NCBI GenBank assembly: GCA_964627095.1
Contig: CAZVKH010000001.1
Coordinates: 8,451-72,450 of the forward strand
Direction: 5' to 3'
Length of the DNA: 64,000 nt
Source of the DNA: an uncultured Candidatus Saccharibacteria bacterium
GTDB lineage: Bacteria > Patescibacteriota > Saccharimonadia > Saccharimonadales > JAUPVS01
Shown here: positions 884 through 53,944 of the stretch, piece by piece
Layout: each line of letters begins with the position of its first letter
Position numbering within the stretch: position 1 is the stretch's first letter
The notes under the pieces: generated by a model
Told to the model about the DNA's origin: nothing
Seen by the model: only the letters and a program-made list of their open reading frames with translations
Databases searched by the model: none
Translations under genes and position numbers: made by a program

Positions 884-961
884 TGGGGCGAATGATGGGG
901 ATCGAACCCACTACCTCCGGAACCACAACCCGGCGCTCTAACCAGATGAGCTACATTCGCC
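884..961 (-). tRNA. tRNA-His (GTG)
   Basis: The reverse complement folds as a cloverleaf with anticodon loop TTGTGGT. An extra 5' G(-1) opposes C73, the tRNA-His hallmark. CCA is encoded. Confidence 0.85.
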
Positions 962-1011
962 TTAAACAGGGGTGATTATAGCGCATTAGCGGCATAACAA
1001 CAAGCTGTACA

Positions 1012-9552: not shown

Positions 9553-9576
9553 AGAATTGGAAGCGACTGCCTGGCG

Positions 9577-9667
9577 GCACATTTCGTCGCGGGCTCGGTG
9601 CCAGCACCTGCGCGCGCTCCTCATGAGCGCACCTTCGACTACTGTCTGCTGCGCAGCCAAGTCGAAG
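9577..9667. repeat. diverged copy C of the tRNA-adjacent structured intergenic element
   Basis: Shares the blocks GCACAT, GCTCGG-hairpin-CCTGCGC and T.ATGA.CG.ACC with copies A and B. Hairpins are GGTGC/GCACC (9597..9608) and CTTCGACT/AGTCGAAG (9633..9667). Confidence 0.4.
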
Positions 9668-9690
9668 AACCGGCGTCTTGCTCACTGGCA

Positions 9691-9720
9691 AAGAAAAAGA
9701 GCCATCCTTATGGATGACTC
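9691..9720 (-). terminator. rho-independent terminator of tRNA-Pro
   Basis: On the minus strand, GAGTCATCC-ATAA-GGATGGCTC followed by TTTTTCTTT. The single imperfect pair is G.U on minus but C-A on plus. Confidence 0.6.
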
Positions 9721-9728
9721 ATTTTCTT

Positions 9729-9805
9729 TGGTCGGGGTGAAAGGACTCGAACCTTCGACCTCACGGTCCCAAACCGCGCGCGCTAGCCAACTGCGCCACA
9801 CCCCG
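9729..9805 (-). tRNA. tRNA-Pro (TGG)
   Basis: Acceptor CGGGGTG/CACCCCG, anticodon arm CGCGG-TTTGGGA-CCGTG, T arm GAAGG-TTCGAGT-CCTTT, CCA encoded. Confidence 0.85.
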
Positions 9806-18003: not shown

Positions 18004-18181
18004 GACTACCTCCACTTATGTTAGTGGGTAGTATTATAGCTTCCGCCCATGTTACTGACAATGAGTCGTATTTGCCACCTCTGTTATAAATACTAACTTT
18101 TAATTAAGAGTTAATATTACTCGTCATGCCCAACAAGCATAACGAATATGCTACAATAACGCCTAGGAATACATGTGTTGA

Positions 18182-22928: not shown

Positions 22929-23045
22929 AGTGCAGCCATAGTAAAACGACCACAACAACAGCGTCAAAACTATCCAATTAACAGTTAATTAATAGTTAAT
23001 ATTACCCTATTGGACCTTAATTAAATCTAGGCGAATTATTAACTT

Positions 23046-25241: not shown

Positions 25242-26750
25242 TTAACTTTCGCTGAAGACTTTTTGGACTAATTCAAGTTGCCTTTGGTTAGTCGGATCAA
25301 ACTTAGCCTTAAATACTAGGTCAAGCATCGCCGGGTCGTTTTTATACTTTTCCCAAAATGTGACAACTCGCTGCTTACCCTCTAAGTATGCCAAGTCTTT
25401 GTTAAATGTAAGTAGGTGATGCTCCCCGTCAGAAAGTCTATCATCAACGCTGGTTGGCGTGCCTCTAAATATTCGAACGCAGCCCGCGTAAGTGTTGTTT
25501 TGAGCGGTAGAAATTTGTTTTTCAGTTGGCTCTTCGCCGCTTTGAGCTTTTATCAACACTCGTGCCCGCCAAAGTGTTTCGAATACCTTGCGAAAGTCAT
25601 TTCCTTCGTAAGCTAAACCGTAGGCTGCATATCGCTCCAGATTCGGTGCATCCCAACTCGTATCCTCACCTGTTGTTGCTTTCTCGCAAGTCGAAGCAAA
25701 ACCTTCTTCGAAAGTCAGGTAGTCACTTACTTCGCCAGGTTCGGCAGCCGTGTATAGCCCCGTCCCAACCACCGGAATATCTGTCTCGATGCCACTCATG
25801 GCCCGGCCAGCATGAACTATGTATTCGTGCACTACTTTACTTAACATCTCTTTTGCAGAAGAAATAGGACCACGCTTGCCACCAATTACTACAGCCATCT
25901 GTTCTGTTTCCCAAGAAAGTGCAGTCGCCGATGGGTCGATAAGCACTTGGATTCCAGAACTATTATCAGGGTCACGCTGTTGATGAATAAGACTAAAGAT
26001 AGCGTACATATCATCGACGGTAAAATGCTGTTCTTCCGTCGGTCTTGGCTTAACATTTTCGTCCCAATACCGTAATATAGTCGGCTCAAGATCTGGGTTA
26101 TCGCTCAAGACTTTCTCATCCAGATAATCGAGTAGTTCTTGAGGTAGTGGCTTAAGTGGCTCGGCATCATTACGCTTAAGTGGAGATACGACGATAGATT
26201 TGCCTGCAACTTCTACCACAAAGCCATGTTCTAGCTCTTGCTTGAGTTGTTGCCCAACTCCAACCAACTCCTTGCCATCAATCTGACGCCAAATTTCACT
26301 TACTACGCCAGCGTACAAGTCTTGATCGGGTTTGCCGTACAGCTGTTCGTTCAGGTTTTGAACATAGCTAGCCCGGCGATCAAGTTCGTCTTCTGACATC
26401 GTAAAGTGGCCATCAATAAGTTCTTTGGCGCTTAGCAACCAATACATCTCGGCCATTCGATAAGCTGCGCTGTCCCAAATTGCCTCTTTGGCAGTCTGGT
26501 CGGGCTGCGCCTCGGCTAGTTTTAGAACCTCACCCAGAACAGATATGCCATTTCTTAGTTCGTTTTCATCTAAAACTGGGTAATCAAGGGTGGGGTTAAC
26601 AACATCGCCTGCGAGAAAATCATCTCTTTGTTGAGCCCGCTCATCTTTGTCGCCCGCCAAACGTTTATACGACTGAAATGCGATTTCAGGAGTATTGAGA
26701 GGATGGAGTTGTTCGCGTAGCGAGACTCCTTCAAGAAGTATCTCTGACAT
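25242..26750 (-). CDS. DUF1704 / MATCAP-like putative metallo-carboxypeptidase
   Basis: HEYIVH (HExxxH) and a downstream FEEGFA (QEGLA-like) motif. I take the ATG at 26750, 6 nt after a TATAAT. The longer track ORF would run through a repeat and a tRNA terminator. Confidence 0.55.
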   Translation of the reverse strand: MSEILLEGVSLREQLHPLNTPEIAFQSYKRLAGDKDERAQQRDDFLAGDVVNPTLDYPVLDENELRNGISVLGEVLKLAEAQPDQTAKEAIWDSAAYRMAEMYWLLSAKELIDGHFTMSEDELDRRASYVQNLNEQLYGKPDQDLYAGVVSEIWRQIDGKELVGVGQQLKQELEHGFVVEVAGKSIVVSPLKRNDAEPLKPLPQELLDYLDEKVLSDNPDLEPTILRYWDENVKPRPTEEQHFTVDDMYAIFSLIHQQRDPDNSSGIQVLIDPSATALSWETEQMAVVIGGKRGPISSAKEMLSKVVHEYIVHAGRAMSGIETDIPVVGTGLYTAAEPGEVSDYLTFEEGFASTCEKATTGEDTSWDAPNLERYAAYGLAYEGNDFRKVFETLWRARVLIKAQSGEEPTEKQISTAQNNTYAGCVRIFRGTPTSVDDRLSDGEHHLLTFNKDLAYLEGKQRVVTFWEKYKNDPAMLDLVFKAKFDPTNQRQLELVQKVFSES

Positions 26751-26792
26751 ATACATATTATAACATAATAGAATGAGTTTTACGATGCCACT

Positions 26793-26868
26793 GGGGCAAC
26801 GCACATCTACGGCCTTGCTCGGAATGCATTCCTGCGCATGGCCTTGATGACCGAACCCCGGCTGCGCC
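26793..26868. repeat. copy A of the tRNA-adjacent structured intergenic element
   Basis: 65/76 ungapped identity (hand count) to 53731..53806. Internal palindrome GGAATGCATTCC (26821..26832) and hairpin GAACCC/GGGTTC (26853..26878). Confidence 0.55.
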
Positions 26869-26895
26869 GTTTGGGTTCTCGGCGCGTGCTCCATG

Positions 26896-26920
26896 AAAAA
26901 AGCCGAACACAAGGTTCGAC
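26896..26920 (-). terminator. rho-independent terminator of tRNA-Lys
   Basis: On the minus strand, GTCGAAC-CTTGT-GTTCGGC followed by TTTTTT. The imperfect pair is G.U on minus only. Confidence 0.6.
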
Positions 26921-26928
26921 TGTTTTCA

Positions 26929-27005
26929 TGGAGGGCCCACTGGGACTCGAACCCAGGACACCCTGCTTAAAAGGCAGGTGCTCTAACCGGCTGAGCTATG
27001 GGCCC
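26929..27005 (-). tRNA. tRNA-Lys (TTT)
   Basis: Acceptor GGGCCCA/TGGGCCC, anticodon arm CCTGC-CTTTTAA-GCAGG, T arm CTGGG-TTCGAGT-CCCAG, CCA encoded. Confidence 0.9.
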
Positions 27006-53181: not shown

Positions 53182-53715
53182 ATGTCAACTTTTGAACAAG
53201 AACGTCGTTCCCAGATGATCGATATTGCTACCTACCGGCAGATTAAGGAAATCGGCAAAGGCTTGGTGACTTTGTCGGGCGTGGCGTTTTCGGAAAAGCC
53301 CGACTATGACCTTGACCTTACTATAAGCCGCATCACCGACGAAACTTTTGGCGTATTCCCACAAATGGGTTACAAAGTTCGCGTGGCAAGCAAACAAACA
53401 CCGGAGGCAAACCACGAAAACCTATTAATTACCGTCAAAGGTTTTGGAGTAGTCGATAGCGAAGGTGAGCTACTCTACAGACGCAAAGTCGGGATAACAG
53501 TTATCGACCAAGAAGTTAAATATTCGTGGGTAGACCTTTTACTACCGCGTGATGGCAAAACACCAGAGAGAGCTCAGCCACAGAGTCAACTAGAGGCTGG
53601 CATCCGCGAACACTTTGAAGCATGGGAGCATGAAATCAGTGGACGACAATTTTACCTCGACCCGGAAAGCGCCCAAATGCTGATGGCCGAAATTCAGGAA
53701 ATCGCCGAGCTCTAA
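53182..53715 (+). CDS. hypothetical protein (177 aa)
   Basis: ORF with TATAAT 9 nt upstream of the ATG. No motif recognised. Confidence 0.5.
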   Translation: MSTFEQERRSQMIDIATYRQIKEIGKGLVTLSGVAFSEKPDYDLDLTISRITDETFGVFPQMGYKVRVASKQTPEANHENLLITVKGFGVVDSEGELLYRRKVGITVIDQEVKYSWVDLLLPRDGKTPERAQPQSQLEAGIREHFEAWEHEISGRQFYLDPESAQMLMAEIQEIAEL

Positions 53716-53730
53716 GGCTTTTGGCGGGGC

Positions 53731-53806
53731 AGGGCAACGCACATCTGCAGCCATGCTCGGAATATATTCCTGCGCGTGGCTTTGATGACCGAACCTGGGC
53801 TACGCC
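53731..53806. repeat. copy B of the tRNA-adjacent structured intergenic element
   Basis: 65/76 identical to 26793..26868. Palindrome GGAATATATTCC (53759..53770) and hairpin GAACC/GGTTC (53791..53815). Confidence 0.55.
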
Positions 53807-53835
53807 CGACGGTTCAAGTCTTCTCTGTGACCAAG

Positions 53836-53862
53836 AAAAAAGACCCTTCTTGTGAAGAGTCT
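53836..53862 (-). terminator. rho-independent terminator of initiator tRNA
   Basis: On the minus strand, AGACTCTTC-ACAA-GAAGGGTCT followed by TTTTTT. The imperfect pair is G.U on minus only. Confidence 0.6.
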
Positions 53863-53869
53863 CTTTTCT

Positions 53870-53944
53870 TGGTAGCGGGGGCAGGACTCGAACCTGCGAC
53901 CTCGTGGTTATGAGCCACGCGAGCTGCCACTGCTCCACCCCGCG
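53870..53944 (-). tRNA. initiator tRNA-fMet (CAT)
   Basis: Very close to E. coli tRNA-fMet (CGCGGGGTGGAGCAG...GGCTCATAACC...AGGTCG.AGGTTC). The 1:72 position is an unpaired C.U. The anticodon stem ends in GG/CC. Confidence 0.8.

Follow-up and report, generated by a model that had tools for sequence, protein, structure and literature searches.

Why does a block of non-coding DNA occur at two distant places in a genome of the Saccharibacteria, each time just beyond the terminator of a tRNA gene? The genomes of this group, like those of CPR bacteria in general, are very small and tightly packed, and few non-coding RNAs or repeats are known in them. We analyzed a stretch of 64,000 nucleotides (the window) in which a first-pass annotation had noticed the two blocks, here called copies A and B, and had proposed that they were a structured RNA or a protein-binding module. 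The best-supported answer is a new family of units of about 150 nt that are inserted at the 3′ ends of tRNA genes, with a hairpin of 61 nt as their constrained part.

Results

The block is repeated beside three tRNA genes of the window

A repeat search of the window returned the pair as a direct repeat of 75 nt (26794-26868 and 53732-53806) with 87% identity (65/75), bearing out the earlier claim of a gapless match at 65 of 76 positions between two distant non-coding blocks. It is the sole long repeat of the window that is not a tRNA. The 12-nt palindromes reported for the two copies (GGAATGCATTCC and GGAATATATTCC) were found, as was the flanking helix (GGCC/GGCC vs. AGCCA/TGGCT), and both copies follow the described order of tRNA, terminator and element on the minus strand. 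When A and B were aligned together with 100-nt flanks (MAFFT), the likeness ended at either edge and the flanks were unrelated. The question of homologous flanks raised in the annotation has two answers: the flanks are not homologous to each other, but each is homologous to its own tRNA. A third copy, to which the annotation had alluded, was located at 9572-9633 (+), adjoining tRNA-Pro. This copy is degenerate (32.6 bits, E = 1.4e-6). In all, 3/8 tRNA genes of the window have the 61-nt hairpin beside them. The features referred to below are as follows.

26784-26797, + strand: left arm of copy A, a decayed reverse complement of the tRNA-Lys 3′ end (GATGCCACTGGGGC vs. GGGCCCACTGGGAC at 26933-26946)
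26797-26857, + strand: hairpin core of copy A (covariance model 78.8 bits, E = 5.7e-20; covariation)
26852-26893, + strand: T-loop/T-arm-like part of copy A, consisting of CGAACCCC, a small hairpin GGCTGCGCC, then GTTTGGGTTCTCGG...CTCCA; holds GAACCC/GGGTTC
26894-26928, no strand assigned: two-way intrinsic terminator common to copy A and tRNA-Lys (A-tract, stem, T-tract; predicted on both strands)
26929-27005, - strand: tRNA-Lys(TTT), source of the left arm of copy A
53719-53735, + strand: left arm of copy B, a decayed initiator tRNA-Met 3′ end (TTTTGGCGGGGCAGGGC vs. TGGTAGCGGGGGCAGGAC at 53870-53887)
53735-53795, + strand: hairpin core of copy B (covariance model 86.7 bits, E = 2.9e-22)
53790-53833, + strand: T-loop/T-arm-like part of copy B, consisting of CGAACCTG, a hairpin GGGCTACGCCC, then GACGGTTCAAGTCTTCTCTGTGACCA
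53834-53869, no strand assigned: putative symmetric A-tract/T-tract terminator hairpin common to copy B and its tRNA (sequence reading and fold)
53870-53944, - strand: initiator tRNA-Met(CAT), source of the left arm of copy B
9572-9633, + strand: degenerate core of copy C, H3 = GGTG/CACC (32.6 bits; same tRNA as L028:9029-9089, tRNA-Pro)
9630-9728, + strand: right arm of copy C, CACCTTCGAC (tRNA-Pro T-stem), then a hairpin, a T-arm-like GTCGAAG...TGGCA and a terminator
9729-9805, - strand: tRNA-Pro(TGG), adjoining copy C
961-1011, no strand assigned: empty counterpart, a 51-nt spacer between tRNA-His and tRNA-Arg(TCT) (alignment of the His-Arg-Gly cluster with L028)

The blocks had been described as non-coding, and six-frame translations agree: the differences between A and B (n = 10) have no 3-nt periodicity and alter amino acids in every frame at nearly every position concerned. 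A small protein-coding gene was ruled out on these grounds.

A family of hairpins in other Saccharibacteria

The protein encoded next to the element assigns the window to the Saccharibacteria. A gapped pattern made of the two outer conserved blocks was scanned against GTDB representative genomes, where it found true copies at two loci (L005 and L007); the other two matches were chance occurrences in coding sequence. A second pattern, the central part of the core, was scanned against metagenomes and identified nine more distinct loci (L010, L013, L015, L017, L018, L023, L024, L025 and L028), the remaining matches again falling by chance in coding sequence, mostly GC-rich. Two pairs of contigs are duplicates (L017 = L026 and L018 = L027), so that the 13 loci fetched represent 11 distinct loci beyond the window. 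The metagenome loci all have ..GC(A/G)CACATC.. and ..TTGATGACCGAAC.. and, since they were chosen by their centre only, the outer blocks must be truly conserved.

The expectation of further copies was confirmed with a covariance model of the 61-nt core. It recovered the 11 further Saccharibacteria loci at 71-87 bits (E 1e-17 to 1e-22), far beyond chance, and scored copies A and B at 79-87 bits. In total, there were 16 strong matches corresponding to 14 distinct copies (71-87 bits), plus 2 degenerate copies; the model also detected L028:9029-9089 (tRNA-Pro) and a weak third copy in L028. At least eight tRNA species are occupied, drawn from Lys, initiator Met, Pro, Asn, Val, Arg-TCT, Arg-CCT, Arg-TCG and Ile. 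The cores of L018 and L028a, both at Arg-TCT, are 76-78% identical, while the L018 core is 88-90% identical to those of L007 (Asn) and L010, and a subfamily with a long H2 helix is found at Asn, Arg-CCT and Arg-TCT. Core similarity is therefore independent of tRNA identity, which implies spread or conversion among sites. No core was seen in relatives that share the MATCAP neighbor gene (L002-L004 and L030-L041; L030 has a possible degenerate remnant only), nor in viral contigs, phage records or plasmid records (scans and BLAST).

The first-pass annotation could name no family for the element, and the comparison with Rfam 15 leads to the same result. At the gathering threshold, only the 8 tRNAs of the window pass, and relaxed scans of 26740-26940 and 53700-53880 gave weak terminator-hairpin matches and no family for the element. 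One chance match to a microRNA lies over copy A (MIR861, 14.8 bits vs. a gathering score of 70, E = 3.8). A search of the published literature returned no description of the hairpins. This family of conserved hairpins of about 60 nt, set in modules of about 150 nt in Saccharibacteria, is undescribed.

The core folds as a covarying hairpin

Using RNAalifold and explicit pair counting, the core was resolved as an irregular hairpin with a 2-bp closing helix, a 2x2 loop, helix H1 (CAUC/GAUG), helix H2 (7-9 bp), a conserved internal loop (GCUCGGAR / YUCCUGCGC) and helix H3. Near-invariant unpaired bases frame it, ..CGCACATC before the stem and TTGATGACCGAA.. after it. In copy A, H1 is CATC/GATG, H2 is GGCCTTGC/GCATGGCC and H3, beyond the internal loop, is GGAA/TTCC. 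Across the alignment, 96.4% of cells are paired and 5 pairs are altered on both sides, a result matched by 0/500 column shuffles; controls with a slid register gave 24-43% of cells paired. Individual helices illustrate the compensation. H1 reads CGTC/GACG instead of CATC/GATG in L028b, H3 changes from GGAGCT/AGCTCC to GGAGCC/GGCTCC between the close relatives L013 and L015 (a compensating T-A to C-G), and H2 differs but stays complementary among copies in one genome (A vs. B, and L028a vs. L028b). Stems that differ and yet remain complementary within a single genome speak for a single strand that folds, not for a symmetric binding site in a duplex.

The initial choice between a structured RNA and a protein-binding module can thus be narrowed: the hairpin covaries and folding as a single strand is favored, but the notion of a self-contained block has to be given up, the edges being tRNA-derived. 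The second hairpin with its GGCT.CGCC loop is likewise present (GAACCC/GGGTTC, 26853-58 with 26873-78 in A; GAACC/GGTTC, 53791-95 with 53811-15 in B), but it is T-arm-like and lineage-specific rather than part of the conserved core: among relatives, identity in these parts drops to 37-64%, against 86-90% in the core. A three-way junction closed by an outer helix between the left arm and the downstream T-arm-like strand was considered and rejected, the duplex energies being no better than those of shuffled arms. This outer helix shows up in several minimum-energy folds.

The left edge of the unit is a copy of the adjoining tRNA 3′ end

The units measure 139-178 nt from repeat to repeat (about 150 nt) and contain no ORF. 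Read on the + strand, antisense to the tRNA, a unit starts with a left arm, the final 15-18 nt of the adjoining tRNA in reverse complement; this arm spans the CCA end to the T-stem/T-loop border and is followed by AC and one variable base. Next come the 61-nt irregular hairpin, CGAAC with T-stem-like bases, a small hairpin that varies by lineage, and a T-arm-like stretch (GGTTCRAxx...) in the opposite orientation, which forms the second hairpin with CGAACC. The unit closes with a symmetric two-way A-tract/T-tract terminator, beyond which lies the tRNA gene on the other strand. The right edge of the element, ACCGAACC, resembles a T-loop and T-stem.

At tRNA-Val, the left arms of L013 and L015 match the tRNA at 18/18 positions. 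The match is 17/18 at initiator Met (L023) and Pro (L028b), and 16/18 at Arg-TCT (L018 and L028a), Asn (L024) and Arg-CCT (L026), with 15 nt matching exactly in L024 and L026. Left arms begin at TGG (the CCA end) without exception, and the neighboring tRNA is their best match among 29 tRNAs. Intact arms of 15-18 nt are seen in L013, L015, L023, L024, L026 and L028, and decayed ones in the window copies. For copy B the same unit is available from another genome: in L023 the arm reads TGGTAGCGGGGGCAGGCC, the 17/18 match to initiator tRNA-Met. The view that the element is an independent block merely lying near tRNAs does not survive, as its left edge copies the 3′ end of the adjoining tRNA, in decayed form here. 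On the other side of the hairpin, the right arm has 9-14 further nt identical to the other T-stem strand and variable loop of the tRNA (L013, L018 and L028b). The signal of the cognate tRNA in this arm and in the T-arm-like stretch is clear in some copies only, for which gene conversion by the adjacent tRNA gene is a plausible source.

tRNA 3′ ends serve as serial insertion sites

The T-loop-to-CCA segment of tRNA genes is a classic hot spot for integrating elements. In L028, a complete unit with 16/18 repeats lies between tRNA-Arg(TCT) and tRNA-His, where the window has 51 nt (961-1011); L018 likewise has a complete unit after tRNA-Arg(TCT). The distal repeat of L028 is the original 3′ end, because the sequence beyond it aligns with the tRNA trailer of the window. 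Such presence and absence could also come from precise deletion between 18-nt repeats.

Two loci have arrays of 3′ ends. In L002, tRNA-Lys is followed first by an element of 4.2 kb that has genes for a large serine recombinase and for Rep, then by a partial 3′ end and a terminator; beyond these lies a different insert ending in ..GCGCT and an 18-nt tRNA-Lys repeat. In L028:1-703, a small ORF follows tRNA-Arg(TCG), and after it a degenerate unit lies between two leftover 3′ ends. These arrays indicate that tRNA 3′ ends are serial insertion sites in the clade. The genes neighboring the units are housekeeping genes, and no recombinase, transposase or reverse transcriptase was linked to any copy.

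Two loci were examined as potential evidence for movement of the core and set aside. L001, a 78%-identical relative, keeps GGGTTCTCGG...ACCA at its tRNA-Lys and has no counterpart of 26797-26872. We did not accept it as an empty site proving mobility: the arm and the T-arm-like stretch are kept and the core was lost between TGGG repeats. The module of L005 is off the usual position, between two copies of TTAACTTATT; as a target duplication this 10-nt repeat is ambiguous, being a copy of the Ala-Ile spacer.

The core is constrained independently of the arms

For units at the same tRNA in different genomes, we compared the core with the next 70 nt. The core was the better conserved part in four pairs: 90% vs. 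37% (copy B and L025), 89% vs. 48% (L023 and L025), 86% vs. 64% (L007 and L024) and 78% vs. 49% (L018 and L028a). The closest pairs do not discriminate (93% vs. 94% for copy B and L023; 92% vs. 99% for L013 and L015). The core is also kept despite decayed arms in window copies A and B, L007 and L025. The hairpin is therefore constrained in place, with a function that is independent of complementarity to the tRNA.

Transcription and the folding strand

At three loci, a housekeeping-type gene on the + strand has its stop codon 3-7 nt ahead of the unit: the ORF at 53182-53715, from whose stop codon the left arm of copy B starts 3 nt away, ndk (L026) and thrC (L018). No terminator lies between gene and unit, and the three mRNAs are therefore predicted to run through the arm and the hairpin to the shared terminator. 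In the 11 unit terminators, read by eye, an A-tract lies 5′ and a T-tract 3′ of the stem, so that on sequence grounds the shared terminator is predicted to be built for both directions. A consensus terminator scan at copy B gave no terminator-like site on either strand; the stem there has internal mismatches. L015 and L023 have a terminator-like hairpin directly upstream of the unit, from which it follows that expression may depend on context. Copy A has a TAGAAT box about 10 nt upstream of its left arm. No promoter was consistent across copies on either strand.

A conserved U.G pair in 12/14 copies favors folding of the + strand; the other G.U vs. A.C counts are balanced. Folding energies of whole units favored the + strand in 6 copies, the - strand in 2 and neither in 4. 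The hairpin strand is probably RNA, antisense to the tRNA. It should be noted that the G.U counts were rejected as a strand call in their own right, having one informative column only, and that an unconstrained count of pairings was too noisy for this purpose.

Comparison with known elements

Elements that integrate at the T-loop and 3′ end of tRNA genes are reportedly divided into sublocation classes in work by K. P. Williams in Nucleic Acids Res in 2002. The units share with them the order of an intact tRNA, an insert and a displaced T-loop-to-CCA direct repeat, and also the arrays of 3′ ends left by stacked insertions (L002 and L028). Eight units (L013, L015, L018, L023, L024, L026, L028a and L028b) have the bounding 3′-segment direct repeats (16-18/18; 15-18 nt exact) beside intact tRNAs. 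In contrast to this class, the unit is only about 150 nt long and, being without an ORF, has no integrase or other gene of its own; one core occurs at eight or more tRNA species, seated within the would-be T-loop of the displaced copy, and it is still constrained once the arms have decayed.

REP/BIME hairpins of enterobacteria are thought to stabilize or terminate transcripts and to be mobilized in trans by RAYT transposases. Like the units, they are short, structured, multi-copy intergenic hairpins, often between convergent genes or in 3′ UTRs near terminators. However, the core consensus has no GTAG head or REP-like sequence and forms no tandem inverted pairs, and the units differ in their strict association with tRNA 3′ ends, their tRNA-derived repeat and a hairpin that is longer, at about 50 nt, and has conserved internal loops. 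The genome fragments examined contained no identified RAYT gene.

With the attC sites of integrons and the attP of phage CTX, the units share an imperfect hairpin, a covarying stem and conserved unpaired or bulged bases; in both cases the newest insertion adjoins a fixed site and older ones lie farther away. Unlike attC, the unit has no RYYYAAC/GTTRRRY core sites, cassette ORFs or integron integrase, and its 'fixed site' is the tRNA 3′ end. Integron attC was rejected as an assignment, its boxes not fitting the unit ends (GGGCAAC; GTTTGGG / GTTCAAG). The left arm also recalls the retroviral primer-binding site and the tRNA inserts of Neurospora mitochondrial retroplasmids: its complementarity to a tRNA 3′ end extends over as many as 18 nt, beginning with TGG and ending next to A58. 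Against this, the unit has neither long terminal repeats nor a reverse transcriptase, its arm always matches the adjacent gene and its junction is variable (15-18 nt). In the genome fragments examined, neither a reverse transcriptase nor terminal repeats were found.

Other candidates were compared as well. A MITE does not fit, because the ..ARCGCACATC end of the unit and its terminator side do not form inverted repeats and the flanking repeat is 15-18 nt of tRNA. For an IS200/IS605-derived palindrome-associated element the picture is mixed: the unit has two hairpins, with GTTC/GAAC abutting the core, and also a long tRNA repeat; the single Y1 transposase seen (L038) has no core nearby. The hammerhead ribozyme was suggested by a UGAUGA, but its GAUG is paired with CAUC in a covarying helix (GACG/CGUC in L028b), a stem II is missing and cmscan gave no match. 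An archaeal-type bulge-helix-bulge tRNA intron was also rejected: the loops are 2x2 and 2-3x2 beside a 4-bp helix, and the host is a tRNA 3′ fragment. Kink-turns (C/D box), dif sites and terminal inverted repeats were compared by eye and none fits. The nearest literature report concerns group I introns in Patescibacteria tRNA genes, which are in the anticodon loop and unrelated (PMC13011429).

Discussion

The best account of these data combines an insertion module at tRNA 3′ ends with a hairpin that works as a folded RNA antisense to the tRNA, in a 3′ UTR or small RNA; we give this combination an even chance of being correct. Insertion at the 3′ end of a tRNA gene would duplicate the T-loop-to-CCA segment, or recombine within it. 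The T-arm-like parts probably mark the recombination site, and some copies have probably been homogenized with the adjacent tRNA gene. The hairpin would be the functional part, acting as a folded single strand in a + strand RNA that covers it and ends at the shared terminator, either as the untranslated 3′ end of the convergent gene or as a small RNA. Its conserved internal loops may bind a conserved protein, or may serve to stabilize the 3′ end or in its processing, similar to the role of REP/BIME hairpins; by that analogy the hairpin would be a protein-binding or 3′-end-stabilizing module. The family points to an unrecognized RNA or RNA-protein module tied to tRNA loci, or to a mobile module without proteins for which tRNA 3′ ends are a safe place to land. 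Either, if true, would be a new class of element for CPR biology and a marker for genome annotation.

Several other explanations assign the hairpin or the arms a different role. The units might be active, non-autonomous miniature integrative elements whose hairpin and T-arm-like flanks form a folded single-stranded DNA recombination site, likened to integron attC or phage CTX attP. Looping out of the hairpin would leave a site that mimics the T-arm of a tRNA gene, and the recombinase would be encoded elsewhere. The repeat of 16-18 nt would then represent either the segment of crossover or identity or a long target-site duplication. The unit is indeed bounded by direct repeats of the tRNA 3′ end and brings its own terminator, many tRNAs are occupied by core subfamilies that are independent of tRNA identity, and the ..AC and CGAAC.. 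around the core recreate a T-loop once the hairpin is looped out. The same hot spot is used by other elements (L002), and related genomes have tyrosine recombinase and Y1 transposase genes. We nevertheless consider this explanation rather unlikely. Old copies have decayed arms and a core at about 90% with the rest randomized, which is unexpected for dead insertions; restoring the tRNA would require a specific 3′ segment for each of at least 8 targets; terminal inverted repeats are absent; and the searches revealed neither an autonomous partner nor a copy in viral or plasmid data. A process new to bacteria, in which the mature tRNA or the T-arm of its gene directs the insertion, is a doubtful further possibility. 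It could take the form of an element, reverse-transcribing or guided by RNA, that copies the tRNA between its CCA end and the A58 region and places the hairpin in the position of the T-loop, or of an integrase that duplicates the T-loop-to-CCA segment as a long 'repeat' at each insertion, as in CRISPR adaptation.

The complementarity of the arms could instead be the point of the structure, the unit encoding a trans-acting antisense or guide RNA that sequesters, marks or processes its own tRNA or the precursor. One arm would base-pair with positions 59-76 of the tRNA and the other with positions of about 44-57, so that position 58 faces the hairpin in the manner of an H/ACA pocket. Complementarity to the tRNA 3′ end is perfect over 15-18 nt in 8 copies, 9-14 nt complementary to the other T-stem strand are added in L013, L018 and L028b, and the arms are colinear with the tRNA except for the break at the T-loop. 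This complementarity is, however, the expected by-product of inserting beside a tRNA, and the arms far exceed those of known guide RNAs in length. They have also decayed in all three window copies, L007 and L025, while the core is intact in A, B, L007 and L025; the function of the core therefore does not need complementarity to the tRNA, and we judge a guide RNA improbable. We hold it still less probable that the arm is a cDNA of the mature tRNA, started at the CCA end and stopped at the modified A58, the units being products of a reverse-transcribing element that used the tRNA as primer or template. The arm begins exactly at the mature 3′ end in 10/10 intact copies, its length is precisely 18 nt in L013, L015 and L028a (and in L023 and L028b with one mismatch), the base opposite A58 varies (A, T or G) and is not the templated T, and the displaced module of L005 between its two repeats would also fit. 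But the CCA boundary is uninformative, because all the tRNA genes concerned encode CCA; the junction is variable, at 15 nt in L024 and L017/L026; the second arm past the hairpin (positions 57 down to 44) is unaccounted for; and the L005 repeats are copies of the Ala-Ile spacer, not a clean target duplication. No reverse transcriptase was found in the genome fragments examined, and group II introns are reported to be absent from Patescibacteria (PMC13011429).

Set beside the folded RNA of an insertion module, neutral debris and a protein-coding gene have hardly any probability left. Such debris would be left by local duplication or template switching at the palindromic tRNA 3′ end, and the region does consist of partial copies of that end, both direct and inverted, a pattern that template switching in replication can yield; but its 61-nt core is unrelated to tRNA sequence, occurs at 9 tRNAs in many genomes, covaries and is strongly constrained. 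The single frame that is open across copy A forms part of the public gene call P0001, but the substitutions have no codon periodicity and alter amino acids in every frame. The periodicity, family, covariation and constraint results effectively refute both ideas. As for P0001, which absorbed that frame, the call is 48 codons too long: it has 550 aa, vs. 502 aa from the in-frame ATG at 26750.

Cargo and a probable rearrangement at tRNA 3′ ends

Two stretches in related Saccharibacteria lie next to tRNA genes:
L002:4349-8812, a 4.2-kb element directly after tRNA-Lys
L028:120-703, the stretch between tRNA-Arg(TCG) and a degenerate hairpin unit

The L002 element, bounded by the repeats GGGTGCTAACAYTT and GGCCCTCCAAT, carries genes for a large serine recombinase and a rolling-circle Rep (PF23343), plus a 57-aa ORF. 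Beyond it lies a second, older leftover of the tRNA-Lys 3′ end (ATCTCACCGAACCCTCCA, 16/18). The L028 stretch contains a terminator, another decayed tRNA 3′ end (TGGTACAGCATTACCC...) and an ORF of about 100 aa, read from the sequence by eye rather than predicted by a tool, for a possible small membrane protein; tRNA 3′ ends thus also receive inserted cargo besides the hairpin.

One unit, in L005, is arranged differently:
L005:2140-2260 and 2427-2448, unit whose arm (the reverse complement of a tRNA 3′ end) matches tRNA-Ile(GAT)

Here the unit and the tRNA-Ile(GAT) gene share a strand, with the gene 200 nt downstream, whereas other units are convergent with their tRNA. The 20 nt TTTAACTTATTTTGATGGGG are present twice, once at the tRNA-Ala/tRNA-Ile spacer and once to the unit's left. 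This indicates a rearrangement via the acceptor-stem palindrome.

The tRNA-Lys/MATCAP site recurs at L030:9787-10000; the relative concerned shows 52% protein identity. A search of this region with the covariance model of the hairpin core gave no match. The region reads GCACAGTC...GATGTC, then GCGAGTTCAAGTC...CCA, followed by a symmetric terminator, and looks like a heavily degenerated unit.

A gene start and promoter-like boxes

The public gene call that runs through copy A, the hairpin core beyond the tRNA-Lys(TTT) terminator, is:
window 25242-26912, minus strand, P0001, MATCAP/DUF1704-like protein, 550 aa

This call places the start upstream, so that the reading frame crosses copy A toward the tRNA terminator. 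An alternative in-frame ATG is found at 26750, with a TATAAT box just upstream; the resulting 502-aa protein agrees with its homologues (495-508 aa). The start given in the public call is probably incorrect, and the transcript may lack a leader.

In the Gly-Arg-His tRNA cluster, tRNA-His has promoter-like boxes of its own on the minus strand (TTGTTG-17-TATAAT at window 961-1011; TTGACA-15-TATCAT at L028:5926-5978), and the cluster is therefore not one obligatory operon.

Transposase gene and direct repeat

L038:16288-16815, IS200/IS605-type Y1 transposase gene (PF01797), between ruvC and ruvA
window 18094-18120 and 22979-23005, 27-nt AT-rich direct repeat, 89% identity

The transposase gene belongs to a roughly 0.8-Mb Saccharibacteria genome and has no hairpin core nearby. 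The repeat copies (TAACTTTTAATTAAGAGTTAATATTAC and TAACAGTTAATTAATAGTTAATATTAC) contain TTAATTAA palindromes and, because both are intergenic, may represent an operator or promoter motif common to the two sites.
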